Below are positions 1 through 21,950 of a DNA stretch of 32,000 nucleotides, in pieces. Origin of the DNA: Haloferax volcanii DS2 (lineage in GTDB: Archaea; Halobacteriota; Halobacteria; Halobacteriales; Haloferacaceae). The notes beneath the pieces are model-generated. The model worked only from the letters and a program-made list of their open reading frames with translations, searched no databases and was not told where the DNA came from. The stretch is taken from assembly GCF_000025685.1 (NCBI RefSeq), contig NC_013967.1, positions 2,010,001 through 2,042,000 on the forward strand. Reading direction: 5' to 3'. The position numbers and the translations under genes were made by a program. The number at the start of each line of letters is the position of its first letter. The first letter of the stretch is position 1.

Positions 1-1830
1 GTTGATGAGCGGGAGGTTGATGAAGAAGCCGAGCACGCCCGCGCCGACGAAGTTCCAGACGCCGCTGGCGACGATGAACATGAACGGCAGGCGGTACGGG
101 AACGACTCGCCCGACATCGCGCGGTACTGCCCGAGCGCCTCGTAGAGGATGAACACCAGCGGGATGAGTTCGAGCGTCGAGAAGACGCTCCCGATGGGCA
201 CCCACATGTCGGGCATGCCGACCCACCAGTAGTGGTGCGAGACGCCGATGATGCCCGTCCCCATGACGAGCAGCGCCTGGAGCATGACGGCCTTCTCTGC
301 GCTCCGGCGGGACAGCAGGTTCATCGACACCAGCGTCAGGCCGACGATGGCGACGATGAAGAACTCGAACGCCCCCTCGACCCACATGTGGACGACCCAC
401 CAGCGCCAGAACTCCGTGACGGCGATGTTCGTCTCGGGGGTAAAGAGGAAACCCGCGGTGAACAGGAGGGCGATGGAGCCGCCGGCGTACAGAATCATGT
501 GCGCCAGTCCGTACGGCGGTTCCTTGTCGAGAAGCGGTTTCAGGCCGCGGACGGCCAGTCCCGCCCAGATGAGGAAGCCGGCGAGGATGCCGAACTGCCA
601 GAGCTTCCCGACTTCGAGGTATTCGAGCCCCTCGTTGCCGAGAATCCACCACAGCGAGCCGTCGATGTAGCCGTTCGCGCCCAGCCAGATGCCCGACAGG
701 CCGCCGACCACGACGACGACGATAGCGCCGAGGAGGACGTTGATGTACCTCGACTGCTTCGGCGGTTCGTAGCCGGTCAGAAGCGGCGGGAGGAACAGCC
801 CCGCGCCGAGCCACGTCGCGGCTATCCAGAGGATACCGAGGTCGATGTGCCACGTCTTGGCGATGGCGAACGGGAGCAGTTGCAGGATGGGCACGCCGAA
901 TAGCGACTCGATGCCGAAGAAGCCGGCGCGCTCGATGTAGAAGTGCGCGAGCAGACCGCCCAACAGCACCTGCGCCAAGAACAACCCGGCGGCGACCGGG
1001 ATGAACCGGAGCGCCGCCCGCTGGCTCGGGAAGACGCTCACGTCGCCCGGTTCGGGCACCGTGATGTCCTCGGCCGACGGCTCGGGGAGTTCGACCGACT
1101 TGTACAGCCAGATGCCGAGGCCCGCCCCCGCGACGAGAAGCACCATGGCGACGACGCTCCACGTCATCGAGGCGGCGGTGGCGTCGTTCCCCGCGCCGGG
1201 CTGGTACGGCCAGTCGTTCGTGTACGAGTGGGTGCCGTCGGGGCGGTCGGTGTGAGAGAACCACGCCGTCCACATGGCGAAGTCCGCGAACGCCCGCGCC
1301 TCCTCCTCGGAGTCGATCATGTTTACGGGCACGCCGCGCTCGTGGTCGCCCTCGTGGTAGCGCTCGACGTACTCCTGTCGAACCTGCTCGTGGGCGTAGA
1401 CCTCGGCCGCAGTGTACCGAATCACGCCGCCCTCGTAGCTGTCGTCGAGGTCGGATTTCACCACGTCGGCGACGGCCGCTTGGTCTGCGGAGTCGAGTTC
1501 GTCGTAGGGTTCACCGTAGCGCTCTTGGGCGTAGTAGTTCCGCATGAACCCGACTTTCAAATCCAGCGCGTCGGCGGTGTAGTCCGCGCCGTAGTACGCG
1601 CCGTTGCCCAGTATCGACCCGTGGTTCATCAGGCCGTCTCTCTGGAACACCGTCTTGCCCTCTCGAATCACGTCGCCGTTGGCGACGACGTCACCGTCGG
1701 GTCCGACCACCTCGTCGGGGATGGGTGGGGCCTCCTGATAGGCGAACCACGCGCCCGCACCCATCACGACGAGGTTGAAGACGAACACGACGACGATTGC
1801 CTTCGCGATGGTCTTGCGTTGTATCTCCAT
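1..1830 (-). CDS. norZ: Quinol-dependent nitric oxide reductase (single-subunit qNOR, NorZ/NorB type). First 610 codons only; the C-terminus runs off the left window edge.
   Basis: The reverse-strand frame is open from ATG at 1830-1828 to position 1. It is missing from the ORF track because it has no in-window stop. My translation begins MEIQRKTIAKAIVVVFVFNLVVMGAG. After TM1 comes the long soluble extension typical of qNOR (GKTVFQRDGLMNHGSILGNGAYYGADYTADAL), then heme-copper-oxidase-like helices (EFWRWWVVHMWVEGAFEFF; GVSHHYWWVGMP). Plus-strand ORFs 232-903 and 943-2268 (5' part) are antisense artefacts. Confidence 0.9.
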   Translation of the reverse strand, partial: MEIQRKTIAKAIVVVFVFNLVVMGAGAWFAYQEAPPIPDEVVGPDGDVVANGDVIREGKTVFQRDGLMNHGSILGNGAYYGADYTADALDLKVGFMRNYYAQERYGEPYDELDSADQAAVADVVKSDLDDSYEGGVIRYTAAEVYAHEQVRQEYVERYHEGDHERGVPVNMIDSEEEARAFADFAMWTAWFSHTDRPDGTHSYTNDWPYQPGAGNDATAASMTWSVVAMVLLVAGAGLGIWLYKSVELPEPSAEDITVPEPGDVSVFPSQRAALRFIPVAAGLFLAQVLLGGLLAHFYIERAGFFGIESLFGVPILQLLPFAIAKTWHIDLGILWIAATWLGAGLFLPPLLTGYEPPKQSRYINVLLGAIVVVVVGGLSGIWLGANGYIDGSLWWILGNEGLEYLEVGKLWQFGILAGFLIWAGLAVRGLKPLLDKEPPYGLAHMILYAGGSIALLFTAGFLFTPETNIAVTEFWRWWVVHMWVEGAFEFFIVAIVGLTLVSMNLLSRRSAEKAVMLQALLVMGTGIIGVSHHYWWVGMPDMWVPIGSVFSTLELIPLVFILYEALGQYRAMSGESFPYRLPFMFIVASGVWNFVGAGVLGFFINLPLIN

Positions 1831-1896
1831 ACACGTCGTGGTTCACACGCCTGCAATAGGCTCTACACGCCGCTTCCCGGCCTCGCACAGCTCGGA

Positions 1897-1908
1897 CGAA
1901 CATGTTCG
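1897..1908. promoter_or_regulatory. Palindrome CGAACATGTTCG, copy 1, between divergent norZ and the CGCGG-protein gene. Candidate operator.
   Basis: Perfect 12-bp inverted repeat read directly from the sequence. Its centre is 72.5 nt from the norZ ATG and 45.5 nt from the ATG at 1948. Identical copies lie at 4643-4654 and 5890-5901. Confidence 0.6.
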
Positions 1909-1947
1909 GATAGGCTCTTTGAGCCGGACGCCGTTCCTCGAAGCGTA

Positions 1948-2268
1948 ATGACGACCGATTCGCGACCCGCGGCCCACGACCACGACACGCCCGACACGGC
2001 GACCGACCGCGTCCACGACACCTCGTGGTCCGCGAACCTCGAACTCCCGCGACACGCCGCCGACCGCGACCTCGTCGTTGCGGAGGCGGTCGCCGCTGTC
2101 GAACACACGACCGCCGGCCACCACGTCAACCTCGTCACCCACGGCGACCACGGCCACCCGGAGACGTACCTGTACGACGCGCTCGCGGAACGGTTCGACG
2201 GCGTGGCGTACGAGTACGTCGAACAGTGCGGCTGCGGCGGGCACGTGACGCGGGTGTACGTGGAATAG
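1948..2268 (+). CDS. Small His-rich acidic protein (106 aa) with a C-terminal CGCGGH motif. Possibly a member of the CGCGG family.
   Basis: This is the ATG-initiated 3' part of track ORF 943-2268: MTTDSRPAAHDHDTPDTATDRVHDTSW...HVNLVTHGDHGHPETYLYDALAERFDGVAYEYVEQCGCGGHVTRVYVE. It has very high GC3 and an acidic composition typical of real haloarchaeal genes. A TATA-like GGCTCTTT box lies about 30 nt upstream. The family name is recalled from memory and not verified. Confidence 0.65.
   Translation: MTTDSRPAAHDHDTPDTATDRVHDTSWSANLELPRHAADRDLVVAEAVAAVEHTTAGHHVNLVTHGDHGHPETYLYDALAERFDGVAYEYVEQCGCGGHVTRVYVE
2047..2096 (+). repeat. 50-bp direct repeat, copy 1 (inside the CGCGG-protein CDS)
   Basis: ccgcgacacgccgccgaccgcgacctcgtcgttgcggaggcggtcgccgc matches 3057-3106 at 46/50 positions. 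The four differences are all transitions. A 31-nt block (2066-2096) is identical. Confidence 0.9.
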
Positions 2269-2302
2269 TCTCGGTCTCGTGCTCGAACGTCGAGACCGGT
2301 GT

Positions 2303-2953
2303 CTACACTCGCGGCGAGTCGGTGTCTAGCTCCCCCGACGAGTCCGGGGTTTCAGCGGTTCCGTCGCCGGCATCCGTTCCGGCGAAGAAGTCGAACGCCA
2401 GTTCGCCGTCGAGGACGTGCGTGTGCTCGAACGTCCCCGTCTCGACGAGTTCCACGGTACTATCGACGACGAGTCTGCGGGCCGAGTCCGGCCATTCGGT
2501 GACCGCGAAGTTGATGAACGCGATCTCGTCGGCGAGCTCGCCGAACCGGTGGACCTCGAAGACTGTGGCCGTATCGTCTCGGAACAGCGACACGGACGGG
2601 TGAGGCTCGTGGCCTCCCTCGAACGGCCCGTGGAGTGAGAGTTTCGGCGGAGACCCGTCGCCGTCCGGTGCCGCGAACCGCTGTGTGAGCGACCGGAGTT
2701 CGGTGTCGTCTGTATGCGAAATCGAGACGGCGAGCGGCCTCGGAAGGGGGCCGGAAGTGGGGTCGACGCCCACGGTGGCGAGGTCTCCGTCGTCTCCGGC
2801 CCCGAATTTGAGGTATTTTCCCCTGTCTCGGTGGTTGTCGTCGGTCTCGACTACCGGGTCCGTGTGTTCGGTTTGCGGGCCGAGAGAGCTACATCCTGCG
2901 GTCAGGGTGGTGGCTGCGGTCAGGGCGGACGCGAGAAACGCGCGACGGCGCAT
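2303..2953 (-). CDS. Tat-dependent lipoprotein of unknown function (216 aa)
   Basis: Internal ATG of track ORF 2303-3154. MRRRAFLASALTAATTLTAGCSS combines a twin-arginine motif, a hydrophobic stretch and an LTAGC lipobox. The mature part is acidic and His-containing. The upstream 67 codons of the track ORF are Arg/Ser-rich and implausible as coding sequence. Confidence 0.75.
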   Translation of the reverse strand: MRRRAFLASALTAATTLTAGCSSLGPQTEHTDPVVETDDNHRDRGKYLKFGAGDDGDLATVGVDPTSGPLPRPLAVSISHTDDTELRSLTQRFAAPDGDGSPPKLSLHGPFEGGHEPHPSVSLFRDDTATVFEVHRFGELADEIAFINFAVTEWPDSARRLVVDSTVELVETGTFEHTHVLDGELAFDFFAGTDAGDGTAETPDSSGELDTDSPRV

Positions 2954-3056
2954 ACGTAGCAACACACCGGAGTCAGTAACAATGTTCTGGACCGGTGACA
3001 CGCGCTGTGAGTGCTTCGGCAGCGTCCCAGTTCTGTTCGCTGTCGTCCGGTCACAA

Positions 3057-3106
3057 CCGCGGCACACCGCTGACTGCGACCTCGTCGTTGCGGAGGCGGT
3101 CGCCGC
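3057..3106 (+). repeat. 50-bp direct repeat, copy 2 (intergenic, between the lipoprotein gene and the XapX-like gene)
   Basis: ccgcggcacaccgctgactgcgacctcgtcgttgcggaggcggtcgccgc lies exactly 1010 bp downstream of copy 1, in the same orientation. It ends 20 nt before the TATA-like box at 3126-3133. Confidence 0.9.
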
Positions 3107-3125
3107 GCTCGCGTCGATGCTGTAC

Positions 3126-3133
3126 CTATTTAT
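3126..3133 (+). promoter_or_regulatory. TATA-like box (CTATTTAT) for the XapX-like gene
   Basis: AT-rich octamer centred about 27 nt upstream of the ATG at 3157. This is the expected geometry for a leaderless haloarchaeal transcript. Confidence 0.4.
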
Positions 3134-3156
3134 CGGGGAACGCGGATGACTCACCT

Positions 3157-3354
3157 ATGGCCTCGCAACTCGTTTTGGCCCTGCTGGCAGGCGTCTTCGC
3201 CGGAGCCCTGTTCGGCCTCATAGAAACACCGATTCCGGCCCCGCCCAACCTCGCCGGGATACTGGGTATCGTCGGCATCTACCTCGGATACAAGGGCGTC
3301 CAGCGGTTGGGGTTCCACGTCGATATCTCGGGGGTGCTCGCGTCGCTGTTCTGA
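3157..3354 (+). CDS. Small membrane protein (65 aa), XapX-domain-like
   Basis: MASQLVLALLAGVFAGALFGLIETPIPAPPNLAGILGIVGIYLGYKG has two hydrophobic segments around a P-x-P-A-P-P turn. By eye this resembles XapX/DUF1427 mini-proteins. It starts at an internal ATG of track ORF 2995-3354, and a TATA-like box sits at -27. Confidence 0.6.
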   Translation: MASQLVLALLAGVFAGALFGLIETPIPAPPNLAGILGIVGIYLGYKGVQRLGFHVDISGVLASLF

Positions 3355-3418
3355 GCGCGCAGTTCGAGAAAAACAGTTCGGCCCGACACTGAAACCCCCG
3401 ACTCCTTCCGCGGACGAG

Positions 3419-4540
3419 TTACTCCGACTTCCCCTTCGGATACGTCTCACCCGCTGACTCGCCGCCCTCGCCCTTGAGCCATATGAACGCGCCGAACAGC
3501 GCGGGTGACGCCAGCATCGCGCCGAACGTCCCGGCCAGCGCGATGCCGCCGAGGCGCTCGGTCCCGGGGTCACCGAACGGTTCGGCCACCTGCGCGTTCG
3601 ACCCGCCCTCGTCGTCGGTGACGACGACTGCCCCTTTCATGCCGAGCGTCTTGTGCGGCGTGCAGGCGTAGGTGTACGTCCCGGCCTCCTCGAAGGTGTG
3701 TTCGAACGTGTGGTCGCCGGCGCTGACGAGGTCGGATTCGAAGCTCCCGTCCTCGGCGGCGACGTTGTGCGACCCGCCCTCGCCGGTCCACGTCCACGCG
3801 ACAGTCGTCCCCTTCGAGACGCGAATCGCCGCGGGGCCGAAGCCGAACGCCCCGCCGTTGGCCTGCGACCCGACCTCGACCGTCACGCGCTGGAGGCCGG
3901 TCTGCGCCTCCACGCCGTCGAAGTTCGAGGTGTTTTCGAACCACGCGTCGAGGTCCGCGTCTCCCTCGCCGGCGCTCTCGGTGGACTCCGACTCGCCCTC
4001 GCCGGCCGAGTCGGTCGAGTCGGTCGAGCCGGTCGAGCCGGCTGCCTCGGTCGCGGTCGCGCCGCCGACGTCGCCGACGACGATTGCACCCTTCATGCCG
4101 AGCGTCTTGTGCGGCGTGCAGACGTAGGTGTAAACGCCGGTCGAATCGAACGTCCGCTCGAACGTGTGGCCGCTGTCGCCGACGAGGTCGGACTCGAAGC
4201 TCCCGTCCTCGGCGGCGACGTTGTGCGACCCGCCCTTCCCGGACCACTCCCAAACGACGGTCGTGCCGGGGTCGACGCGCACGGCGGCCGGGCCGAACCC
4301 GAACGCCCCGCCGTTGGCCTGTGACCCCACCGTCACCGTCACCGTCGAGCGTCCCGTCTCGTCCACCACCCCGTCGTAGTTCGAGGTCTGTGCGAACCAC
4401 GAGTCGAGGTCGGACCCCGACTGCGCTCGTGCGGAATCGGTGATGCCTCCCAGCGCGGTCGTAGAGACGGCCGCGCCGCCGAGGAGTCGAAGTACGGTTC
4501 GCCGGCCGAGCGTCGGAGATGTGGTGTCGTTCGAACTCAT
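3419..4540 (-). CDS. Halocyanin (blue copper protein) with two tandem cupredoxin domains, a Tat signal and a C-terminal TM anchor
   Basis: 373 aa. The N-terminus GRRTVLRLLGGAAVSTTALGG is a Tat signal. There are two ~114-aa repeats, each carrying GGSHNVAAEDGSFES and Y(V/A)CTPHKTLGMKG (type-1 Cu ligands His, Cys, His, Met). A hydrophobic C-terminal segment LGGIALAGTFGAMLASPALFGAFIWL follows. Confidence 0.92.
   Translation of the reverse strand: MSSNDTTSPTLGRRTVLRLLGGAAVSTTALGGITDSARAQSGSDLDSWFAQTSNYDGVVDETGRSTVTVTVGSQANGGAFGFGPAAVRVDPGTTVVWEWSGKGGSHNVAAEDGSFESDLVGDSGHTFERTFDSTGVYTYVCTPHKTLGMKGAIVVGDVGGATATEAAGSTGSTDSTDSAGEGESESTESAGEGDADLDAWFENTSNFDGVEAQTGLQRVTVEVGSQANGGAFGFGPAAIRVSKGTTVAWTWTGEGGSHNVAAEDGSFESDLVSAGDHTFEHTFEEAGTYTYACTPHKTLGMKGAVVVTDDEGGSNAQVAEPFGDPGTERLGGIALAGTFGAMLASPALFGAFIWLKGEGGESAGETYPKGKSE
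3614..4411 (-). repeat. Intragenic tandem duplication: two cupredoxin modules (4070-4411 and 3614-3955) separated by an acidic Ser/Thr/Gly/Glu linker
   Basis: Residues 44-157 and 196-309 of the halocyanin align without gaps (DLDSWFAQTSNYDGV... against DLDAWFENTSNFDGV...), with long identical stretches such as GSQANGGAFGFGPAA and GGSHNVAAEDGSFESDLV. Confidence 0.9.
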
Positions 4541-4641
4541 GATTGAGGATGGCGAGGCGGTGGACCCGCCCCGCTCGACACTCGACGGTCGGGGGTCCGG
4601 TGAAAAGCCCGTCTCGGTGGTTCTCGAACCGCGGCCGGAAG

Positions 4642-4655
4642 CCGAACATGTTCGG
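4642..4655. promoter_or_regulatory. Palindrome CCGAACATGTTCGG (core CGAACATGTTCG), copy 2, between the divergent halocyanin and HTH_10 regulator genes
   Basis: Perfect 14-bp inverted repeat. Its centre is 48.5 nt from the ATG at 4697 and 108.5 nt from the halocyanin ATG at 4540. Confidence 0.6.
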
Positions 4656-4696
4656 AACTATCTTTGTGCGGCGGGGACGACTTCGTTTCACTACCG

Positions 4697-5338
4697 ATGC
4701 CCCGGGCAACACTCTCCATCACGCTCCCCGAGCAGGTCTGGGTCTCCGACCTCTCGGGCCGCTATCCGGACGCCGAGTTCACCGTGCTCGCGGCGATGCC
4801 GGCCGACGAGACGGGCGTCGGCCTCGTCGAGATACGAGCGGCCGACATCGAACCCGTCGTCACCACCATCGACGAGTACGAGTCGGTCGTCTCGGTGACG
4901 ATTCTCGAAGCGCAGCCGGAGCGCGCGCTCGTGCAGTTCGAGACGACCGAGCCGCTGTTGATTCTCACGCTCAGCGAGGTGGGAATCCCGCTGGAACTGC
5001 CCATCACCATCGTCGACGGCGAGGTGACAGTCGAGGTGACTGCGCCGCGGGAGAACCTCTCGGAGTTGGGCGAACAGCTCACGCAGTTCGGCATCCCGTT
5101 CGACCTCGTCTCCATCCACCAGTCGATAGACACGGAGTCGCTTCTCACCGACGACCAGTACGACCTCCTCGAAACGGCCGTCTCCGAGGGCTACTACGAC
5201 ACGCCGAGGACGTGCACGCTCACCGAACTCGCCGAGGCCGTGGGGCTGGCGAAGTCGACGACGAGCGAGAAGCTCCACCGGGCGGAGGGCAAAGTGATGA
5301 AGGCGTTTCTCGCGCGGGACGACGCGACGGTCGGGTAG
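4697..5338 (+). CDS. HTH_10 (bacterio-opsin-activator-type C-terminal HTH) transcription regulator
   Basis: The C-terminus LTDDQYDLLETAVSEGYYDTPRTCTLTELAEAVGLAKSTTSEKLHRAEGKVM matches the haloarchaeal HTH_10 pattern. I chose the ATG start (MPRATLSITLPEQVW) over the TTG start used by track ORF 4664-5338. Confidence 0.85.
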   Translation: MPRATLSITLPEQVWVSDLSGRYPDAEFTVLAAMPADETGVGLVEIRAADIEPVVTTIDEYESVVSVTILEAQPERALVQFETTEPLLILTLSEVGIPLELPITIVDGEVTVEVTAPRENLSELGEQLTQFGIPFDLVSIHQSIDTESLLTDDQYDLLETAVSEGYYDTPRTCTLTELAEAVGLAKSTTSEKLHRAEGKVMKAFLARDDATVG

Positions 5339-5341
5339 GTC

Positions 5342-5710
5342 TCAGTCGTCGGCTTGGTCGCTGACGGCCGACCACATCGTCGAGAGCTGGTCCGAGGCCG
5401 ACCGCGACGGCGACGACACCGAAAGCGAGAGGTCGCCGGGTTCGCGCGTCACGACGACCTCCTCGAAGCCGAGCGCGTAGCGGGCGGCGTCGCGGCCGCG
5501 GTCGCGTTTTTCGAGGAGCCCCGCCTCGACCATCTGTTCGAGCTTTCGGTACACCGTCGACCGCGGGAGGTCGCACGCGGCGGCGATGTCCGAGGCGGTC
5601 ATCGGCCCGTCGAGCCGCCTGAGGACCGCCCGACACTGCGGGCTGGTGAGGGCGGCGAACACCGTCTCGAAGTCCGGTTCGAGCGCGTCTGAGAGAGGAT
5701 TGGTCGACAT
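5342..5710 (-). CDS. ArsR-like winged-helix transcription regulator (122 aa)
   Basis: Internal ATG of track ORF 5342-6028: MSTNPLSDALEPDFETVFAALTSPQCRAVLRRLDGPMTASDIAAACDLPRSTVYRKLEQMVEAGLLEKRDRG. This shows the wHTH pattern (LxxPxRxxIL...S.STVxxHLxxLxxAGL-like). The upstream 106 codons of the track ORF are Arg-rich and cross the promoter region. Confidence 0.8.
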   Translation of the reverse strand: MSTNPLSDALEPDFETVFAALTSPQCRAVLRRLDGPMTASDIAAACDLPRSTVYRKLEQMVEAGLLEKRDRGRDAARYALGFEEVVVTREPGDLSLSVSSPSRSASDQLSTMWSAVSDQADD

Positions 5711-5888
5711 CTGCGTGAGAGTGGATTGCTCGGCGGCGACCCGCGCGCCGTCGGTTCGATTCCCGATACACCTCCGGGGCGTATGAAAGTCGTGGGGCAC
5801 CAGCGTCGGTGCGGTCGAACCGATGGCCGTCGATTCTGACTGGTACGCCCGACTCGACTGTTTTCCCGCCCGGTACGTATCGACCATG

Positions 5889-5902
5889 CCGAACATGTTC
5901 GG
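5889..5902. promoter_or_regulatory. Palindrome CCGAACATGTTCGG, copy 3, upstream of the two-domain multicopper oxidase gene
   Basis: Perfect 14-bp inverted repeat. Its centre is 72.5 nt from the ATG at 5968, the same distance as copy 1 from the norZ ATG. Confidence 0.6.
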
Positions 5903-5967
5903 TGAACTCCTGTGCGTCGGGAACCGGCGAGACCGTATTCCATACCCCCGGACAACGACCGACCGTA

Positions 5968-7125
5968 ATGCGAAACTACGTCGGTGCACCCGGTTCGACG
6001 GTATCGCGTCGCGAATTCCTCGCCGCAACGGGAAGCGTCGGAGCGCTCGGCCTCGCGGGGTGCGCCGCGCCCACGAACGATGACGGCAACGCCGCCGTCG
6101 GCACGGACGAGACGACGGTCGCCCAGACGAGCGAGTCGAGTCTGCCGTACACCAGTCCGCCGGAGGTCGTGCAGGTGGACGAACAGGGCGGGCAGGTCAC
6201 CCTCAAGAGCGCGCCGGCGCGCCACGCGGCCCACCCCCTCGAAACGATGGGCGGGCCGGTCGAACTCCCGCAGGTATGGGCGTTCAGCGCCGACGACGGC
6301 GAGCCGAGCGTCCCCGGGCCGATTCTCCGGACGACCGAGGGCAACGACATGGAGGTCACGCTGGACAACACCGACGGGATGCGCCCGCACACGGTCCACT
6401 TCCACGGCGTGCGCAAGGCCTGGAAGGACGACGGCGTGCCGACGACGACGGGCATCCGAGTCGACCCCGGCGAGAAACACACCTACACCATCCCGGCGAA
6501 CGTCCCCGGAACGCACCTCTACCACTGTCACTACCAGACCCACCGGCACATCGAGATGGGGATGTACGGCATCCTCCGCGTCGACCCGAAGGGGTACGAG
6601 CCGGCCGACCGGGAGTACTTCATGACCGTCCGCGACTGGGACTCGCGGCTCCCCCGGCAGATGGCCGGCGAGAACGTGACGTACGACCCCCGGGACCGGA
6701 AGCCGGACGTGTTCACCGTCAACGGGAAGAGCGCGCCGCGGACGCTCCACCCCGAAGACGGCTCGCCCATCATCGTCGAGCAGGGCGACACCGTCCGGGT
6801 CCACTACGTCAACGCGGGCTACATGAGCCACCCGATGCACATCCACAACCACCGCTTCCAGGTCGTCGAGAAGGACGGCGGCGTCGTCCCCGAGGCCGCC
6901 CGCCACGACATGGACGTGACGAACATCGCGCCCGCGGAGCGCCACACCATCGAGTTCACGGCGGACGCCCAACCCGGTATCTACCTCATGCACTGCCACA
7001 AGGTCAACCACGTCATGAACGGGGGCTTCTACCCCGGCGGCATGCTGAGCGGCGTCGTCTACAAGGAGGCGATGGACACCGACATCTTCGCGAGCCTGAT
7101 GGAGTACGCCGGCTACGAGGGCTGA
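5968..7125 (+). CDS. Two-domain multicopper oxidase, Tat-exported lipoprotein (385 aa)
   Basis: The N-terminus SRREFLAATGSVGALGLAGCAAP combines a twin-arginine motif with an LAGC lipobox. Copper motifs appear twice: HTVHFHG plus HLYHCHYQTHRHIEMGM in domain 1, and HPMHIHNH plus LMHCHKVNHVMNGG in domain 2. The H-C-H-x3-H spacing is MCO-type, not NirK-type (H-C-x8-H). I chose the start at the internal ATG of track ORF 5809-7125. Confidence 0.9.
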   Translation: MRNYVGAPGSTVSRREFLAATGSVGALGLAGCAAPTNDDGNAAVGTDETTVAQTSESSLPYTSPPEVVQVDEQGGQVTLKSAPARHAAHPLETMGGPVELPQVWAFSADDGEPSVPGPILRTTEGNDMEVTLDNTDGMRPHTVHFHGVRKAWKDDGVPTTTGIRVDPGEKHTYTIPANVPGTHLYHCHYQTHRHIEMGMYGILRVDPKGYEPADREYFMTVRDWDSRLPRQMAGENVTYDPRDRKPDVFTVNGKSAPRTLHPEDGSPIIVEQGDTVRVHYVNAGYMSHPMHIHNHRFQVVEKDGGVVPEAARHDMDVTNIAPAERHTIEFTADAQPGIYLMHCHKVNHVMNGGFYPGGMLSGVVYKEAMDTDIFASLMEYAGYEG

Positions 7126-7235: not shown

Positions 7236-8687
<1,452 letters not shown>

Positions 8688-8804: not shown

Positions 8805-9839
8805 ATGGTCCTCGGCAGTCTCCTCCGGTCGTCGCCGCTCGCGAACGTCGCCCTGATTCTCCTGATGACCGGTCTCATCTGGGTCGGCAGCGGGTGGCTC
8901 GAAGCGTCAGCCGACCACCTCGCGGCGTACTACGGCCTCCCGGCGGTCGTCCAGGGCTCCATCATCGTCGCCCTCGGGTCGAGCTTTCCCGAGTTCGCCA
9001 GCGTCGCCGTCGCCGCGGCCGCGGACGTCTTCGACATGGGCGTCGGCGCAATCGTCGGCTCGGCCATCTTCAACATCCTCGTGATTCCGGCACTGTCGGG
9101 TCTCGCCACCGACGGCGACCTCGAAACCAGCCGGCTCGTCGTATACAAGGAGGCGCAGTTCTACATGGTCGCGGTCGCCACGCTCGTCGTCACCTTCTCG
9201 CTGGCGGTCATCTACTTCCCCGTGCCCGACGGCCCGCCGCTGACGGGAGAACTCACCCGCCCCATCGCGCTCATCCCACTGCTCCTCTACGGGCTCTATC
9301 TATTCATCCAGTGGCAGGACGTGTCGGAGCACGAAGCCGAGGACGCTGGCGTCGCTGACGGCATCGGCCGCGAGTGGGCGCGGCTCCTCGGCGGCCTCCT
9401 CGTCATCCTCGTCGGCGTCGAGCAACTGGTCGGGAGCGTCGAGTCGCTCAGCGCGACGTTCGGCGTCCCGACGTTCCTCGCGGGCGTCACTGTCGTCGCC
9501 GCCGCGACGAGCCTCCCCGACACGCTCGTCAGCGTCCGTTCGGCCGCCGACGGCAACAGCGCGACGAGCCTCGGCAACGTCCTCGGGTCGAACACGTTCG
9601 ACCTGCTCGTCGCCATCCCCGTGGGCGTGCTCATCGTCGGGAGCGTCCCGGTGGACTTCGCCGTCGCCGTCCCCATGCTGGGCGTGCTGACGCTGGCGAC
9701 CGTCCTGCTTTTCGGCCTGCTCCGGACGGACCTGTCGCTCACCCGGCTGGAGTCGTACGCGCTCGGCGCGGCGTATCTCGTCTTCGTCGGCTGGGTTATC
9801 GCCGAGACCGCGGGCGTCACGTCGCTACTTCGGAACTGA
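8805..9839 (+). CDS. Ca2+/cation antiporter (CaCA family, sodium:calcium exchanger-like membrane protein)
   Basis: 344 aa and polytopic. The two alpha-repeat signatures are GSSFPEF (N-terminal half) and ATSLPDT (C-terminal half). An AGGGAG Shine-Dalgarno-like element lies 6-10 nt upstream of the ATG. Confidence 0.88.
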   Translation: MVLGSLLRSSPLANVALILLMTGLIWVGSGWLEASADHLAAYYGLPAVVQGSIIVALGSSFPEFASVAVAAAADVFDMGVGAIVGSAIFNILVIPALSGLATDGDLETSRLVVYKEAQFYMVAVATLVVTFSLAVIYFPVPDGPPLTGELTRPIALIPLLLYGLYLFIQWQDVSEHEAEDAGVADGIGREWARLLGGLLVILVGVEQLVGSVESLSATFGVPTFLAGVTVVAAATSLPDTLVSVRSAADGNSATSLGNVLGSNTFDLLVAIPVGVLIVGSVPVDFAVAVPMLGVLTLATVLLFGLLRTDLSLTRLESYALGAAYLVFVGWVIAETAGVTSLLRN

Positions 9840-14646: not shown

Positions 14647-15176
14647 TCTGATTACCCACCCTTTGTGGCGGCTCTGAGCAGTATCTCACCCACCCCTTGA
14701 GATATCCTATCGAGTTTCGACTACAACTCCAACGACCACGATGATAATCGTTCCCCCCAAGTGGACGAGAGCGGCGGCCGAACGGGTCTCACACGGTCGG
14801 GTGGTCGTGACCGCGAGTTTCATCGCGTTCGAGAACGTCCGACACGCGTGTTCTCGGCCGAGGTCGAACGCGCCAAACCGTGGTCGACTGTCCCAGAGTG
14901 TGATGAAGATACGTCTGTTACATCTCTGTCGGTCACTCGCGTTCCGTCCACCGCGGTCGCCTCGCAACGCCCCTCGCTTACGCGGGAGCCAAGTCGACAC
15001 CGCCGATATCATAACATATATTATGGATATTCGCACGTCGGCGGCGACCGCGCCGTGTCGCTTGCGACGACGGGGGTTGATTTCAACGGCGTGAGGTCCG
15101 CCCGAGACCAGGCATCGACCTTTCAGAAATTTTCACATTCAAAAGTATTATGCCGTTTCTATCTGTTGGGTGGGAT

Positions 15177-18100
15177 ATGAGTCGCTACCGCAGGCTCTCC
15201 CGACAAGGGTTGAGTCTTGCACTCACCCTCATCGTGGTATTCTCGGTTATCGCAGGGCCAGTCTCTGCGAGCGCCGGGACCGCCACAGGTGAGGCACAAC
15301 TGGGTGGACCGCCCGCTAACCAACTCGACACGGTCGACGACGACCAACTGACCCAGGCGTCGGAGAACATTAGCGTCTGGGACGGCGCGTTCCTGTCGCT
15401 CCGGCCTGACGACACCGACTCGCGGCTCGACTCGGCCGCGGCGTATCAGGTCCAGTCGACCAACACGTACGTGCGGGTAGACGGGAGGGAGCGGTCCCTC
15501 GAAAAGAATCCGATGTACGTGTACAACGTCGGACAGGAGGTCCCGTTCACGTTCTCCGGTTCGAGCGCCGGTGCGCCCCGAGCCATCGAGGGCCAGGACG
15601 TCCAACTCGTCGCGGCAAAGCTCGATAAGGGCGCGACGATTCCCCGGAGCGTCCCCGGCATCGCCCAGACGCTCACGAGCGACGACGACGTGAGTTCCTC
15701 GGTCGTCGGCTCGGCGCAGGGCACGTCGGACGACAACTCGTTCGCGTTCACGCCCGACGAGTCAGGCATGTGGATGTTCGCGGTCGTCACCGTCGACGAC
15801 GGCACCGGCTTTTCGGACGCCAACGGCGACGGGAACCTCGAAACCGACGGCAACGTCACGTTCGTCGGCGTCGACGCCCTGCCCGTTCAGCAGGGGTCGT
15901 CGTCGGTGAGCGCGCCGTCGCTCGCGGGCAACGGCCAGAACGTGACGGTTACGGTGGACGCCTCGTCGCTCGACGCGACCGAGGTCAGCCACACCGTCGC
16001 AATCTTCAACGAGTCCGACCTCTCGAACTACGACCAGACCATCAACGCGACCGACCGGTCGAGCATCTCGCTCGAAACCGAAATCGCGCGGGTCAACGGG
16101 ACCATTCGGATGCCGTCGAACGCGAACATCATGGGCGTCACGCCCGGTTCGCGCTCGTTCGTCGGCAGCGAGACGGCCGTTTCGATTTTCGACCAGCTCA
16201 ACGACAGCACGTCCCGGTTCGACGACGTGACCGTCGTCTCCCCGGGCGCGACCGTCTACGGTTCGGCCGTCACCGAGGTCGCGGGGAACCAGACGACCGT
16301 CGAGGTCCCCATCGCCGACGACGCCACGCCCGGTGACTACGTCGTGATGCACGTCGCGACGAACCAGTCGGGCACCGAGTCGGTGACGAACCGCGCGCCG
16401 CTGCAAGTCGCCCAGAGCGTCCAACTGAACCTGACGGCGAACACGACCACGCCCGTCGCGGGTGAGGACGTGGAGTTCGCCGTCACGCGCGAAGACACCG
16501 GCGCGGCCGTCGAGAACGCCGAGGTCACCGTCGGCGGAACGACCGTCCAGACGAACGCCAACGGCGTCGCGGTCGTCACCGTTCCGACGGCGGGCGAGTA
16601 CAACGCCACCGTCTCGAAGAACGCGACGAACGGCGAGGCGTTCGCCGGCGACGCGCTCGCGCTCGACGTGTTCGAGCCGGCGACCTTCGAGTACAGCAAC
16701 CTCACCATCGAACCGAAGCAGATCGTTCCCGGAACCGACGTGGTCGCGAACGCGACCGTCGAGAACGTCGGTGAAGTCAACGGGAGCTACGAGGCGGCGC
16801 TCACCGTCGACGGCGAGCCGCAGCCGTCCTCCGACACCGGCGAGCTCCAGCCCAACGAGTCGACCGAGGTGAGCTTCACCACCTCGTTCGAGGACCCCGG
16901 CACCTACAACGTCTCCATCGACGAGCTCTCGACCGACGACGCCGAACTCGTCTCGCGGACAGTCCGCGTCATCGCGCCGGCGAACTCGACCGTGACCGAC
17001 GTCACCGTCGAGCCGACGAGCGTCAACACGACCGAGCGCTACACCACTTCGGCGACCGTCGAGAACACCGGCGGTCGCTCCGACCTGGTCCGGCTCACGT
17101 ACACGACGACCGACGACTCGGGCACGGAGGTCTCCAACACCACCCGAACCGTCGTCGTGGGCGCTGATTCCACGGTCACGAGAAACGTGACCACGCTCGC
17201 GCCGACCGCGCTCGGTGCCGACGACGTCGGAAACTTCACCGTCACCGTCAACGGCGTCGAAGCGGATTCGACGCTGACGGTCACGCGGCGCGACCGGCTT
17301 CCGCCGACCGTCCGGCTTCCGGAACCCGCACAGGGCGCGGTTCCCTTCGGCACGCCCATCACGCTCAACGTGAGCGACGAGTCGGACATCAGGCGCGCGA
17401 CGTACAGCTTCGGTAACGGCTCGCAGCCGCTCTCGCTCGACGCCAACGGGAGTGCGACCGTCCCGACCGGCGACCTCGACGAGGGAGAGACGACGCTGAC
17501 GGTCAACGCGACCGACACGGCCGGGAACACGATTACCCGGACGTTCAGCTTCGACTTCGTCTCCTCGCCGCGCGTCACGAGCGTCGAACCGACCGACGTC
17601 GTCGGGCCGTCGAGCACTATCTCGGCGTCCTTCGCGGACGACCGCAACGGCGACGCGGAGTCAGGCATCAACGCCAGCGCGACGACGCTCGTGGTCAACG
17701 GCACGGCCGTCGACCTCTCGGGCGCGACGACGAACGACAACTCGACGCTCGAAATCAACGTCTCCGAACTCGGCGTCTCGCTCGACGAGGGGCCGACGAC
17801 CGCGAGACTGACCGTCGTCGACGAGGCCGGCCACGCCACCTCGCGGCTGTTCGAGTTCGAGTACGACGAGACCGCGCCGACCGCGAGTCTCACGCTCGAC
17901 CCCGACTACGACGAGGACCGCGAGGACGTGAGCGCGAACAACCCCGTCGACATCACGCTCGACAGCGCCGACGACAACCTCGAATCCGCGGCGTTCGTCG
18001 TCCGTGACTCGGACGACGAGGCGGTGTACACGCGCGACGTGACCTCCCTCGCCAGCACGACCGGCGGGTTCGAAATCGAGTGGGACGGCACGAGCGACGA

Positions 18101-21100
18101 CAGCAGTCTCGTCGACAGCTGTTCCTACAACCTCACGCTCGTGAGCACGGACGCCGGCGGTAACACCGGCGTCGCCAACGCCACGGTCTGCGTGGACAAC
18201 GATGAGCCGACCTACGACGTGTCGGCCGTCGACGGAACGACGGACCCCGTCTACACGAACGGCAGCGTCGATGTCGCGTACAGCACCTCGGAGAGCGTCA
18301 CCGTCGAATACGCGTTCGAGTCCGACTCGGGCGTGACGGCGACGTTCGAACGGACGCCCGACAACGGGACGGGCAACCACACGCTCGACGTGGCGTCGGC
18401 GCTCCCCGACGGGAACTACACGATGACGGCGACCGCCACCGACCTCGGTAACAACCAGGTCACCGTGGAACGGGCCGACCCCGTCGTGGTCGACACGACC
18501 GACCCCGGACTCACCGCGACGCTCAACACGACCGAGTCCGGCACCCTCTCGGTCAGCGTCGCCAGCACGGAACCGCTCGCCGGCACCCCCGACGCGGAAC
18601 TCACCGACCCGAACAGTAACGTCGAGTCGCTGAACCTCACGGAACAGGACTCGACGACGTGGACCGCCGAACTCGACACGACCGAGTCCGGCGAGTACGC
18701 ACTCGACGTGACGGGGACCGACCTCGCCGGCAACACGGCGAGCGACTCCAGTACCGCGACCGTCACGAGCAACAACTTCTCGGAGCGGTCGTCGGTGGTG
18801 CTCGTGAGCGCGAGCGGCGACACGTTCATCCGCATTAACGCCAGCGACGACGCCGACCTGCCCGCTGGGCAGACCGTCATCACGCTGACCGACACGAACG
18901 TCCCGCCGAACGCGCTCTCGCAGGGCACGGCGGCGACGAAGTACCTCGAAGCCAACGCCGGACTCACCGAGGACCAAATCGAGAGCGTCACCTACGGCTT
19001 CAACGAAGACCTCGACACCTCCGGAAACGGCTTCAACATCGTCTACATCGAGCGCGGCGGCACGCAGGTGCTTCCGACGACGCTCCAGACCGACCCGTTC
19101 GGCCTGTCCGGTAACTACTACACCGCGACCCGAACCGGTCTGTCGACCTACGGCGCGGTCGAAAACGACACGGAAGCGCCGACCATCAGCTACGACGACC
19201 CGGCCGAAGGCGCCGAGTTCTCCGAGGTCAACGACACGGTCTCGGTGAACGCGACGCTCTCCGACAACGTGGAGGTCAACACCTCCTCGGTGTCGGTGAC
19301 GCTCGACAGCGACGGACCGGTCAGTAACGTGGACGTGACCGACAACGCGACGATCACGAACGAGTCGGTCAACTACACCGCGTCCGGTCTCTCGCCGGCG
19401 GACTACACCGTCACCATCGAGGCGTCCGACACGAACCTGACCGCCAACACGGCGACCGAACAGGTCAACTTCACCGTGCAGGACGACCGCGAACCGCCGA
19501 CGATCACCGCGCTCGGCCCGACCAACGGCACGACCTTCCCGTTCGGCACCGACACGGTGGAACTCAACGCGACCTACGAGGAAGCGAGTGACGCGGTGAA
19601 CGACACCGGCGTCGACGCGGAGAACGTCACCGTCCTGTACGACGGACAGGACATCTCGGCCTCGGCCGCGCCCGACGCGACCGGGTTCAACACGACCGTC
19701 TCCGTGGACGGAAACGAGACGCACAACCTCACCGTTCGCGTGCTCGACAACGCCGGTAATAGCGTCGAGGACACGACGAACTTCAGCATCGCCGCTGACG
19801 ACGCCGAGCCGACGGTCGAGATTTCGAGCCCCGTCGAGGACGAGGAACTCTCGAACACGACGAGCTCGGTCAACGTGACCGCGAGCATCGACGACGCCGA
19901 AAGCGGCGTCAACCTCAGCTCCGTGACCGTCACCTTCGACGGGACCGACGTCACGAGCGAGGCGACCCTCGACGACCTCTCGAACATCCGGCTCAACGAG
20001 ACCGGTCTCGAACCGGGCACCAGCCACACGGTGTCCGTCTCGGCGGCCGACGAGAGCGGGAACGAGAACGCCTCGACGGTGAACTTCACCGTCGCGCCCG
20101 ACCTGACGGCACCGAACGTCACGCGGGTCAGTTCCCAGAACGCCACCTTCGAGAGCGACGCTAACGTCTCGGTCGAAGTGAACTACTCCGACCCCGAGAG
20201 CGGCATCGACGCCTCCGCGGTGACGCTGCTGCTCGACGGCGAGGACGTGACCGACGACGCGACGGTGTTCTCGAACCCCGGCGCGACGCTCGACCTCAAC
20301 ACGTCCGAAATCGACTCGGGCGAACACGTACTCAGCGTGCGCGTCACCAACAACAACGGTGACACGACCACGAACGACACCACGTTCTCGGTCAACCGAG
20401 GTCCGGACATCGCCGTGACCGCCGCGGACCTCAACGCGACCAGCGTGCAGACCGGCGACCAGGTCGAGGTGACCGCGCAGGTCGAGAACTTCGGTGACGA
20501 GACCGGGTCGCTCGACATCGGCGTCACCGGCACCAGCCAGGCGGGCACCACCGACTTCGGCGTCACGAAGTCCGTGACCCTCGACACTGGTGAGAACCAG
20601 TCCGTGAGCCTCGTCATCGAGCCGACGAGCGCGGGCACCTACTCCATCGCGGTCGACGAAACGACCACGGAGAACGCGCTCGACGTGAGCTCGCCGACGG
20701 CCGACATCCAACTGCTCAGCGACTCGTCGGCCAGCCCGTCGACGCTCCTCGAAGACGAGGAGACGACCGTCACGGTCAAACTCGGTAACCTCGGCGGCGC
20801 GAGCGGCAACATCTCCGGCGACGTGACCCGGAACGGGACGACGGTCGGGAACATCTCGACCTCGCTCGCGTCCGGCGCACAGCGGACGTTCACCTTCACC
20901 GACACGCCGCCGGGAACCGGCGACTACGTCTACGCGTTCGGCGGCGAGACCATCGAGACGGTCAGCGTCTCGGCGCGTCTCCCGGCGTTCAGCATCGACG
21001 CGAGCGCGAGTTCCATCTCGCAGTCGACCGTGGACACCGAAGAGACGTTCACGGTCTCGGTGCGCGTGAACAACACCGGAACCGCGGAGGGGACGTACAC

Positions 21101-21950
21101 CAAAGCGCTCACGGCTGACGGCACGACGCTGGCCACGGAGAGCGTCACCGTCGGCCCCGGTTCCTCCGGCACGCTGACGTACACCGTCTCCATCGACGAC
21201 GCCGGCACGTACGACCTTCAGGTCGACAACGTCACGGTCGGCAGCATCACCGTCGAGGAACCGAACGTCGGTGGCGGCGGCGGCGGTGCCGGCGGGAGCA
21301 GCCTCCCCCACGACGACACGACCGACAGCGACCGGCTGTTCTCGGCACGCGGCTTCGACGCCCAGTTCGACGGCGGACAGGGCGTCTCCGCGGTGAGCAT
21401 CACGTTCAGCGAGCAGACGACCGGCGAGGTCGTCGTCAGCGAACGGTCGGGGGTCCCCGGCAGCGTGGGACAGCCCGACGGCACGGTCGTCAGCTACGTG
21501 CGGATTGACGTGCCCGACAGCGCGCGCGACCGCGCGTCGACCCTCCGGTTCACCGTCAAACAGAGCCGGCTCGACGAACTCGGCATCGAATCGTCCGACC
21601 TCGTGGTCCGGCGGTTCAACGAGGACGCCGGTTCGTGGGAAAACCTCGAAACCAGCGTCGTCGACAGTGGTAACGGCGCGGTCGTCCTCGAGGCCGACAC
21701 GCCCGGCTTCTCGTACTTCGCCGTGACGTCGAGGCAGGCCGTCACGACGACGACGCCGGACGACGACGGCACGACGACGACGACGACGCCGGACGACGGC
21801 ACGACGACGACTGGCACTGCCGGCTTCGACGACGAAACGTCGACGGCAGCGAGCGGCACGACCGACTCCCCCGTTCCCGGATTCGGCGCGGCGCTCGCCG
21901 TGGTCGCGCTCCTCGCGGCCGCGCTCCTCGCCGTCCGTCGGAACGACTAA
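15177..21950 (+). CDS. Giant secreted cell-surface protein (about 2257 aa) with CARDB-like and Ig-like repeats, a PGF-pre-PGF domain and a PGF-CTERM archaeosortase signal
   Basis: The signal peptide is MSRYRRLSRQGLSLALTLIVVFSVIAGPVSASA. An alternative ATG at 15150 would add 9 aa. There are at least 5 CARDB-like modules (for example FEYSNLTIEPKQIVPGTDVVANATVENVGEVNGSYEAALTVDGE) and about 9-10 modules of roughly 100 aa bounded by D-x-x-x-P-T and containing ATD/AAD-x-(A/S)GN. NxS/T sequons are dense. A Thr-rich linker TTTTPDDDGTTTTTTPDDGTTTTG precedes the C-terminus SPVPGFGAALAVVALLAAALLAVRRND. Confidence 0.9.
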   Translation: MSRYRRLSRQGLSLALTLIVVFSVIAGPVSASAGTATGEAQLGGPPANQLDTVDDDQLTQASENISVWDGAFLSLRPDDTDSRLDSAAAYQVQSTNTYVRVDGRERSLEKNPMYVYNVGQEVPFTFSGSSAGAPRAIEGQDVQLVAAKLDKGATIPRSVPGIAQTLTSDDDVSSSVVGSAQGTSDDNSFAFTPDESGMWMFAVVTVDDGTGFSDANGDGNLETDGNVTFVGVDALPVQQGSSSVSAPSLAGNGQNVTVTVDASSLDATEVSHTVAIFNESDLSNYDQTINATDRSSISLETEIARVNGTIRMPSNANIMGVTPGSRSFVGSETAVSIFDQLNDSTSRFDDVTVVSPGATVYGSAVTEVAGNQTTVEVPIADDATPGDYVVMHVATNQSGTESVTNRAPLQVAQSVQLNLTANTTTPVAGEDVEFAVTREDTGAAVENAEVTVGGTTVQTNANGVAVVTVPTAGEYNATVSKNATNGEAFAGDALALDVFEPATFEYSNLTIEPKQIVPGTDVVANATVENVGEVNGSYEAALTVDGEPQPSSDTGELQPNESTEVSFTTSFEDPGTYNVSIDELSTDDAELVSRTVRVIAPANSTVTDVTVEPTSVNTTERYTTSATVENTGGRSDLVRLTYTTTDDSGTEVSNTTRTVVVGADSTVTRNVTTLAPTALGADDVGNFTVTVNGVEADSTLTVTRRDRLPPTVRLPEPAQGAVPFGTPITLNVSDESDIRRATYSFGNGSQPLSLDANGSATVPTGDLDEGETTLTVNATDTAGNTITRTFSFDFVSSPRVTSVEPTDVVGPSSTISASFADDRNGDAESGINASATTLVVNGTAVDLSGATTNDNSTLEINVSELGVSLDEGPTTARLTVVDEAGHATSRLFEFEYDETAPTASLTLDPDYDEDREDVSANNPVDITLDSADDNLESAAFVVRDSDDEAVYTRDVTSLASTTGGFEIEWDGTSDDSSLVDSCSYNLTLVSTDAGGNTGVANATVCVDNDEPTYDVSAVDGTTDPVYTNGSVDVAYSTSESVTVEYAFESDSGVTATFERTPDNGTGNHTLDVASALPDGNYTMTATATDLGNNQVTVERADPVVVDTTDPGLTATLNTTESGTLSVSVASTEPLAGTPDAELTDPNSNVESLNLTEQDSTTWTAELDTTESGEYALDVTGTDLAGNTASDSSTATVTSNNFSERSSVVLVSASGDTFIRINASDDADLPAGQTVITLTDTNVPPNALSQGTAATKYLEANAGLTEDQIESVTYGFNEDLDTSGNGFNIVYIERGGTQVLPTTLQTDPFGLSGNYYTATRTGLSTYGAVENDTEAPTISYDDPAEGAEFSEVNDTVSVNATLSDNVEVNTSSVSVTLDSDGPVSNVDVTDNATITNESVNYTASGLSPADYTVTIEASDTNLTANTATEQVNFTVQDDREPPTITALGPTNGTTFPFGTDTVELNATYEEASDAVNDTGVDAENVTVLYDGQDISASAAPDATGFNTTVSVDGNETHNLTVRVLDNAGNSVEDTTNFSIAADDAEPTVEISSPVEDEELSNTTSSVNVTASIDDAESGVNLSSVTVTFDGTDVTSEATLDDLSNIRLNETGLEPGTSHTVSVSAADESGNENASTVNFTVAPDLTAPNVTRVSSQNATFESDANVSVEVNYSDPESGIDASAVTLLLDGEDVTDDATVFSNPGATLDLNTSEIDSGEHVLSVRVTNNNGDTTTNDTTFSVNRGPDIAVTAADLNATSVQTGDQVEVTAQVENFGDETGSLDIGVTGTSQAGTTDFGVTKSVTLDTGENQSVSLVIEPTSAGTYSIAVDETTTENALDVSSPTADIQLLSDSSASPSTLLEDEETTVTVKLGNLGGASGNISGDVTRNGTTVGNISTSLASGAQRTFTFTDTPPGTGDYVYAFGGETIETVSVSARLPAFSIDASASSISQSTVDTEETFTVSVRVNNTGTAEGTYTKALTADGTTLATESVTVGPGSSGTLTYTVSIDDAGTYDLQVDNVTVGSITVEEPNVGGGGGGAGGSSLPHDDTTDSDRLFSARGFDAQFDGGQGVSAVSITFSEQTTGEVVVSERSGVPGSVGQPDGTVVSYVRIDVPDSARDRASTLRFTVKQSRLDELGIESSDLVVRRFNEDAGSWENLETSVVDSGNGAVVLEADTPGFSYFAVTSRQAVTTTTPDDDGTTTTTTPDDGTTTTGTAGFDDETSTAASGTTDSPVPGFGAALAVVALLAAALLAVRRND
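21871..21947 (+). other. PGF-CTERM sorting signal (archaeosortase ArtA-type recognition tripartite tail)
   Basis: A PGF motif, a hydrophobic helix and a basic tail (VPGFGAALAVVALLAAALLAVRRND), immediately after a Thr-rich linker. The preceding module ending PGFSYFAV is the usual pre-PGF domain. Confidence 0.85.

Follow-up and report, generated by a model that had tools for sequence, protein, structure and literature searches.

The 32,000-nucleotide (nt) stretch of Haloferax volcanii DS2 analysed here (contig NC_013967.1, positions 2,010,001 to 2,042,000; hereafter the window) contains three perfect copies of the palindrome CGAACATGTTCG, all of them in an island of genes for a nitric oxide (NO) reductase and copper proteins. 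It is highly probable that these palindromes are copies of a known denitrification cis-element, working as activating sites of a dimeric helix-turn-helix (HTH) regulator and serving divergent promoters. Indeed, the window motif is identical in sequence to the published element (3/3 copies CGAACATGTTCG), and the three palindromes are orthologous copies of the published motif next to the same published genes. The element is thus already known, and the window itself holds no new kind of element. By footprinting, we could tie the motif in many genera to a single regulator family and define two promoter geometries, and we found an additional conserved GrGAAC element that lies beyond the targets of published mutagenesis. 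These three results are not described in the cited H. mediterranei and H. volcanii literature and are a refinement of a known system. More generally, haloarchaeal denitrification adds to the nitrogen gas and nitrous oxide (N2O) emissions of hypersaline systems. The three copies, none of them assigned to a strand, are:

1897 to 1908: copy 1, CGAACATGTTCG, common to the divergent norZ (minus strand) and CGCGG gene (plus strand), 66 nt from the norZ ATG
4643 to 4654: copy 2, extended to CCGAACATGTTCGG at 4642 to 4655, common to the divergent di-cupredoxin halocyanin gene (minus strand) and BAT/HTH_10 regulator gene (plus strand)
5890 to 5901: copy 3, extended to CCGAACATGTTCGG at 5889 to 5902, 5' of the multicopper oxidase (MCO) gene (plus strand) and 191 nt from the ArsR-like gene (minus strand)

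A scan of the whole window found no fourth perfect copy. Copy 1 is preceded by A and reads ACGAACATGTTCGG with its flanks, and a G directly follows all three copies. An earlier model-made reading of this DNA (hereafter the sequence-only reading) had reported the three copies, their uniqueness, the extension to CCGAACATGTTCGG and the trailing G, and the scan reproduced each of these; its gene calls around the three sites agree with Pfam and NCBIfam. Its chance expectation of 0.004 was slightly too high, because the palindrome is identical on both strands: from base composition we expect about 0.001 copies per window, which leaves its conclusion unaffected. None of 100 dinucleotide-preserving shuffles of the window contained a perfect copy. 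When up to two mismatches were allowed, the window gave seven matches, whereas the shuffles averaged 2.1 and never got to seven. A chance origin of the palindromes is excluded by these shuffles. All three copies are intergenic, each between divergent genes (checked by Pfam and NCBIfam). Elsewhere in the window the looser pattern CGAA-N4-TTCG occurs only at 9589 (CGAACACGTTCG, within the Na/Ca exchanger gene) and 11878 (CGAAGTAGTTCG, within the malic enzyme gene). The former (9589 to 9600) is one mismatch from the motif and is found again at corresponding positions of other Haloferax loci; its conservation probably reflects the coding sequence and not a regulatory site.

In H. mediterranei, CGAAYATDKTYG was described in the nar, nirK, nor, and nos promoters (PMC10062603, Miralles-Robledillo et al. 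2023). Exact CGAACATGTTCG is found in front of nor, 66 nt from the start codon, and in front of nos, 69 nt from it; the 66-nt gap of norZ in the window is that of H. mediterranei nor. In the same work, changing the first base of the motif significantly cut the activity of the nor and nos promoters under anoxia, while the effect on nirK was not significant. The rows of its Table S8 include a perfect CGAACATGTTCG between the MCO gene and an HTH (ArsR-like) gene, and another between the CGCGG gene and nor. For the spacer between the HTH_10 and halocyanin genes, the rows listed have only an overlapping weak match, CGAATGTTTTTG; the present analysis located a perfect copy in this H. mediterranei spacer, 53 nt upstream of the regulator gene. 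Furthermore, eight motif copies were reported in the 12.5-kb nirK-nor cluster of H. mediterranei, whose genes are induced under denitrification (PMC11218638, Miralles-Robledillo et al. 2024). In that work, the bat-like HTH_10 gene E6P09_00735, also induced under denitrification, was put forward as encoding the likely main regulator. As for H. volcanii, a CGAA-X4-TTCG palindrome was described in denitrification promoters (nirK, norB, and halocyanin genes) and at ahbD (PMC5746218), and HVO_2141, 2147, 2150, and 2153 change expression together (PMC10716476).

The H. mediterranei system and the window share the core CGAACATGTTCG, the 66-nt nor gap, the neighbours of the motif (MCO/HTH, CGCGG/nor, HTH_10/halocyanin), and the gene order; the difference is that H. 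mediterranei is another Haloferax species, with DNA about 83% identical to the window over the alignable parts. The palindrome described in H. volcanii is of the same class, and its presumed binder, NarO, is likewise of the HTH_10 type (Hattori et al. 2016, cited in PMC5746218 and PMC10062603). The sequence-only reading had linked CGAA-N4-TTCG repeats to HTH_10 regulators of the NarO type, correctly according to what PMC5746218 (citing Hattori 2016) and PMC10062603 say of them. It had also presented as new that an MCO, a CGCGG protein and regulators share a site with the quinol-type NO reductase. This was already in print, on the evidence of the Table S8 rows of PMC10062603 together with PMC11218638.

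Could the palindrome have no regulatory role? It might be a small hairpin terminator, have arisen by chance, serve as a restriction-modification target or be left over from duplicated DNA. The terminator scan does flag CCGAACATGTTCGG followed by AACTATCTTT at site 2, and over 45 nt the promoter on the halocyanin side resembles that on the MCO side: in an independent repeat search, 4611 to 4655 paired with 5889 to 5933 with 71% complementarity. The site 2 terminator was rejected, as no gene ends there, nor does one at either of the other two sites, and a 12-bp palindrome leaves almost no hairpin loop. The flanks differ outside the short functional elements, the shuffles gave no copies, the position relative to the start codon is conserved across genera (see below), and the published mutagenesis alters expression (PMC10062603). 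A palindrome without function is therefore extremely improbable, and the conservation and mutagenesis data effectively refute it. A sigma-70 promoter scan gave no matches, being a bacterial model that does not apply to archaea.

Then, we compared the motif across genera in 80 genomic loci, out of 350 genomes encoding a relative, collected with an alignment of 24 homologues of the BAT/HTH_10 regulator as query. Upstream of the regulator gene, the motif with at most one mismatch starts 46 to 58 nt before the start codon in 65/80 loci, in 45 of them as a perfect copy, and in at least 14 named genera. The motif centre lies 70.5 to 74.5 nt upstream of norZ in 24/26 loci, and at the same distance from the MCO gene in 21/21 loci whose orthologue is at least 79% identical; the MCO spacing is preserved even in Halobellus, where the gene order is inverted. 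For the CGCGG gene the centre is 46.5 to 47.5 nt upstream in Haloferax. The distance to the halocyanin gene is more variable (105 to 138 nt).

In the 1.56 Mb made up by the loci and the window, 81 perfect copies were found against about 0.05 expected from base composition. None of the 81 fell at positions classed as coding, against 44% of background positions. This classification comes from a codon-periodicity classifier calibrated on the window, with 72% sensitivity and no false coding calls; a simple gene caller based on open reading frames and GC content at third codon positions (GC3) was dropped, since it over-extended start codons and missed small genes. Footprinting of orthologous promoters, the check that the sequence-only reading had proposed, thus finds the motif kept at fixed spacing. 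Neither a comparable density inside coding regions nor an absence upstream of the orthologues in relatives, which it had named as evidence against an operator, was observed. Its view of the motif as the operator of a dimeric regulator, defining a compact regulon, is well supported by conservation, spacing, and the published mutagenesis.

Across the 80 loci, genes with the motif upstream at the fixed spacings also encode members of two DUF2249 families, a radical S-adenosylmethionine (SAM) enzyme, a ThiS-like protein, a cupin, an SRPBCC protein, and a protoporphyrinogen-oxidase-like flavoprotein, in agreement with the accessory genes discussed for H. mediterranei. The radical-SAM enzyme is presumably the partner of the CGCGG peptide. 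In many genera, the motif-controlled set comprises this CGCGG-family precursor and, in relatives, the radical-SAM enzyme (1948 to 2268 in the window; 2750 to 3880 and 8308 to 8658 in locus L082).

The spacing between the start of the motif and the next credible start codon has a bimodal distribution. Among 387 site-gene pairs, 143 lie at 50 to 54 nt and 36 at 55 to 59 nt, and a second group lies further away (44 at 75 to 79 nt, 14 at 80 to 84 nt). In the proximal class, a weak TATA-like box follows about 8 nt after the palindrome, and there is an AT-rich pair at −11/−10 relative to the ATG. This pair points to leaderless transcripts, which would place the palindrome at about −50 to −39. In the distal class the order is palindrome, 16 to 17 nt, sGrGAAc, 10 to 13 nt, TATA box (consensus TTATAC), and ATG at +78/79. 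Of 61 unique distal-class sequences, 36 have the sGrGAAc element at offset 29 to 31, counted from the start of the motif; besides the window, the loci that carry it include L001 to L023, L049, L063, L064, and L076. In both classes, the AT-rich positions coincide with the expected TATA and −10/−11 WW elements.

The distal palindrome is about 28 bp further upstream than the proximal one. Measured from the distal palindrome, the auxiliary element is about 30 bp (three helical turns) away, which is roughly the place that the upstream half of the palindrome takes in proximal promoters. GrGAAC itself resembles a half-site and looks like a third one beside the palindrome. In the window, norZ, the MCO gene, and the halocyanin gene have the distal layout, and the CGCGG and regulator genes the proximal one. 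Sites 1 and 2 are each flanked by one promoter of each class, and thus each serves two divergent promoters. The promoter elements of the window are:

1873 to 1879, minus strand: auxiliary CGGGAAG of the norZ promoter, 17 nt downstream of the palindrome
1853 to 1860, minus strand: TATA-like CCTATTGC of norZ, 30 to 23 nt before the ATG, its position conserved and AT-rich in orthologous promoters; this position suggests a leaderless norZ mRNA
1915 to 1923, plus strand: TATA-like CTCTTTGAG of the CGCGG gene, 6 nt after the palindrome (CTTTGA core 8 nt after) and about 30 nt before the ATG, kept in Haloferax loci
4620 to 4626, minus strand: auxiliary CGAGAAC of the halocyanin promoter, 16 nt downstream of the palindrome; CGrGAAC is kept in Haloferax and Halobellus
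4600 to 4607, minus strand: TATA-like CTTTTCAC of the halocyanin gene, 67 nt before the ATG; this position implies a transcript leader of about 35 nt
4661 to 4668, plus strand: TATA-like TCTTTGTG of the regulator gene, 6 nt after the palindrome (TTTGTG core 8 nt after); other genera have TGATAG, TTATGG or TTTATT at this offset
5918 to 5924, plus strand: auxiliary CGGGAAC of the MCO promoter, 16 nt downstream of the palindrome
5935 to 5941, plus strand: TATA-like GTATTCC of the MCO gene, TTATAC in other genera, at a consensus offset of +45 from the motif start

These two geometries could be explained by an HTH_10 activator of the Bat family that would bind the palindrome upstream of the core promoter. 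At distal promoters, a second contact at GrGAAC would put the activator at the same place beside the basal transcription machinery, and the distal palindrome would help to load it onto this weak proximal half-site. In bacteria, boxes of the FNR/CRP family (FNR, DNR, NNR) have the form TTGAT-N4-ATCAA and occur at class I and class II denitrification promoters. The likeness to these boxes is a functional analogy only: both are dyad sites of a dimeric activator of nir, nor, and nos genes under low oxygen or NO, and both occupy two discrete positions, either proximal to the core promoter or about 2.5 to 3 helical turns further upstream. The regulators belong to different families (CRP/FNR versus HTH_10/Bat), the core promoter here consists of the TATA box and TFB recognition element (BRE) used with TBP and TFB, and the box sequences are unlike. 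Closer to the present system are the sites of Bat (bop promoter) and GvpE (gvp promoters), which are also haloarchaeal activator sites directly upstream of BRE/TATA, and Bat is itself an HTH_10 protein. Their site sequences differ from the palindrome, and the PAS and GAF sensor domains of Bat are missing from the window regulator (PMC11218638); coherently, Pfam detected neither a PAS nor a GAF domain in it.

Which protein binds the palindrome? Among the candidates considered, the regulator encoded at 4697 to 5338 is the most likely one, and we put its being the binder at about even chances. It is favoured because the motif accompanies its gene across genera, because its recognition helix is as invariant as the CGAAC/GTTCG arms of the motif, because it is induced during denitrification, and because H. 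mediterranei, reported to lack NarO, retains functional sites (PMC10062603). Its domain layout is that of the Bat family, with PF15915 (BAT, 1e-8) followed by PF04967 (HTH_10, 4.7e-18), both above cut-offs. The protein shares 97 to 99% identity with proteins of H. denitrificans, H. volcanii, H. gibbonsii, and others; with the H. mediterranei protein the figure is 89%. Its recognition helix, AKST[TAC]SE[KTR]LHRAE, is invariant or nearly so in 24 sequences from many genera, in parallel with the invariant arms of the motif. As both are essentially invariant, a comparison of helix and motif for covariation is without power.

The full proposal is more tentative, and we hold it at somewhat less than even chances. 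In it, the palindrome would be the operator of the BAT/HTH_10 regulator (the HVO_2151/E6P09_00735 family) and not of NarO, with autoactivation through the site 50 to 54 nt ahead of the regulator's start codon in at least 14 genera, and with a proximal position and a distal one that needs GrGAAC about 30 bp downstream. By activating its own gene, the regulator would create a positive feedback loop. If the proposal is true, the system would be an archaeal counterpart of the bacterial class II and class I FNR/DNR promoters, and its regulon would also take in the precursor of a CGCGG radical-SAM peptide. As a separate observation, in many genera (Haloarcula, Halococcus, Halobaculum, Halorarius, and others) the stretch that separates the first palindrome from the start codon of the regulator gene holds a second, AT-centred copy, at −23 to −11. 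Mostly it reads CGAATATATTCG, otherwise a near variant such as CGAATACGTTCG or CGAATATCTTCG (loci L033, L039 to L041, L046, L050, L051, L056, L059, L063, L068, L070, L071, L073, L074, L077, L078, and L080), and is absent from the window. This second copy could repress, giving negative feedback on the regulator gene.

NarO, an oxygen-responsive HTH_10 protein whose megaplasmid gene adjoins the nar operon and lies outside the window, could instead be the binder, or another paralogue could, with the local regulator as one target in a cascade. NarO is needed for denitrifying growth, and the denitrification genes share the cis-element, as reported in PMC5746218 and PMC10062603 with reference to Hattori 2016; the palindrome is also described as essential for anaerobic nirK transcription in H. 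volcanii (PMC5746218, citing Hattori 2016). On the other side, H. mediterranei is stated to be without NarO (PMC10062603), yet it has the same sites and their mutation is effective, and at least 14 genera have the motif together with the local regulator family. We therefore consider this alternative possible but rather unlikely.

The local regulator itself has a single cysteine, C173, and the 24-sequence alignment contains no conserved cysteine or histidine in its N-terminal half. NarO reportedly has an N-terminal CXnCXCX7C four-cysteine motif. NarO is encoded beside nar, whereas the window regulator belongs to a nor/halocyanin/MCO cluster, its gene lying between the halocyanin and ArsR/MCO genes and not upstream of a nar operon. 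On its single cysteine and its gene position, identification as NarO was rejected; judged by its sequence, the regulator is a paralogue of NarO.

A tblastn search of plasmids found a further paralogue, 45.6% identical to the regulator, encoded between nosZ and nirK on the H. gibbonsii megaplasmid pHGLR1 (locus L081, 228408 to 241019). Its recognition helix, AKSTCSEILHRAE, is very similar to that of the regulator, so paralogues could share a site. This paralogue was not used as a NarO, since its cysteine pattern differs from the one NarO is said to have. On pHGLR1, motif variants occur at both spacings: one has its centre about 75 nt before an azurin-nosZ operon, and the other begins 52 nt upstream of a cupin gene.

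Several points weigh against the local regulator as binder of the palindrome and activator of its own gene. The motif is missing from the usual position upstream of the regulator gene in 15/80 loci, and, where present, it fits a cascade, in which another factor activates the gene, as well as it fits autoregulation. The genetic evidence from H. volcanii favours NarO, a different HTH_10 protein encoded elsewhere, and paralogues with near-identical recognition helices exist. The binder of the motif is described as still undisclosed in PMC11218638. The sequence, the alignment, and Foldseek revealed no cysteine cluster, histidine motif or recognisable ligand-binding domain in the regulator, and so no clue to what it senses. 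Finally, the positions given relative to transcription starts come from TATA-like boxes and start codons. As for structure, a PDB sequence search with the regulator found no relative, and its AlphaFold model, of good quality (pLDDT 82.7), gave in Foldseek against the PDB only a marginal match to Ta1207 (E 1e-3, TM 0.44).

The ArsR/HTH_20-type regulator (5342 to 5710) was also considered as the binder. ArsR-family dimers bind inverted repeats, and the gene adjoins site 3. Moreover, Haloplanus, Salinirarus, and related loci have an ArsR homologue of 39 to 43% identity with the motif 50 to 92 nt upstream, and there the HTH_10 gene is without its usual copy. Mutation of the motif, however, lowers expression, as expected of an activator site, and ArsR proteins are typically repressors. 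In Haloferax, the motif is far from the ArsR-like gene and at variable distance (181 to 196 nt), and the 5' region of this gene has a different conserved repeat, more like an operator of its own. On balance, binding by the ArsR-like protein is improbable. The repeat in question is an imperfect inverted one at 5817 to 5836, GAACCGAT-GGCC-GTCGATTC; on the ArsR strand it has the form GAAyCGA-N6-TCGrTTC. Haloferax species, H. mediterranei among them, have kept this repeat, which may be the operator of the ArsR-like regulator. On the ArsR side of site 3 neither promoter class fits cleanly, and there is a separate TATA-like box. The sequence-only reading had the three sites driving six genes: for five of them this agrees with the conserved spacing and promoter geometry, but not for the ArsR-like gene, with its remote, variable site and its own inverted repeat.

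The genes of the island, as annotated with Pfam and NCBIfam, are the following:

1 to 1830, minus strand: norZ, quinol-type NO reductase, truncated by the window start (Pfam NorB_cytochrome_c-like, 5e-51, and COX1)
1948 to 2268, plus strand: CGCGG-family putative radical-SAM-modified precursor of a ribosomally synthesized and post-translationally modified peptide (RiPP), 106 aa (NCBIfam TIGR03995, 6e-40, above cut-off)
3419 to 4540, minus strand: di-cupredoxin halocyanin, 373 aa (TIGR03102, 1.9e-84, in two stretches), with an internal 300-nt repeat
4697 to 5338, plus strand: BAT and HTH_10 regulator, 213 aa, orthologue of E6P09_00735 (Pfam HTH_10, 4.7e-18; BAT, 1e-8)
5342 to 5710, minus strand: ArsR/HTH_20-type regulator, 122 aa (Pfam HTH_20, 2e-15; NCBIfam ArsR/SmtB match below cut-off)
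5968 to 7125, plus strand: two-domain MCO, 385 aa (Pfam Cu-oxidase_2/_3)

The MCO was rejected as a NirK, scoring 70 bits with TIGR02376 against a cut-off of 296. Beyond it lie thiC, the Na/Ca exchanger gene, and the malic enzyme gene, so the denitrification island stops at the MCO on that side. The DNA of the first 12 kb of the window is about 92% identical to that of H. denitrificans, H. marisrubri, and H. gibbonsii. Among Haloferax species, the distance from the nor site to the regulator ranges from 1967 to 2803 nt.

Within the halocyanin gene, 3604 to 3903 and 4060 to 4359 form the 300-nt internal repeat (80% identity), which reflects a tandem duplication of the cupredoxin domain. A 55-nt direct repeat with 89% identity links 2047 to 2101, in the CGCGG gene, with 3057 to 3111, in the spacer before a small membrane-protein gene (3157 to 3351), and looks like the relic of a second CGCGG gene. 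Far from the island, 15150 to 21950 is a very long open reading frame of 2266 aa with a strong codon-position GC bias (GC3 0.91).

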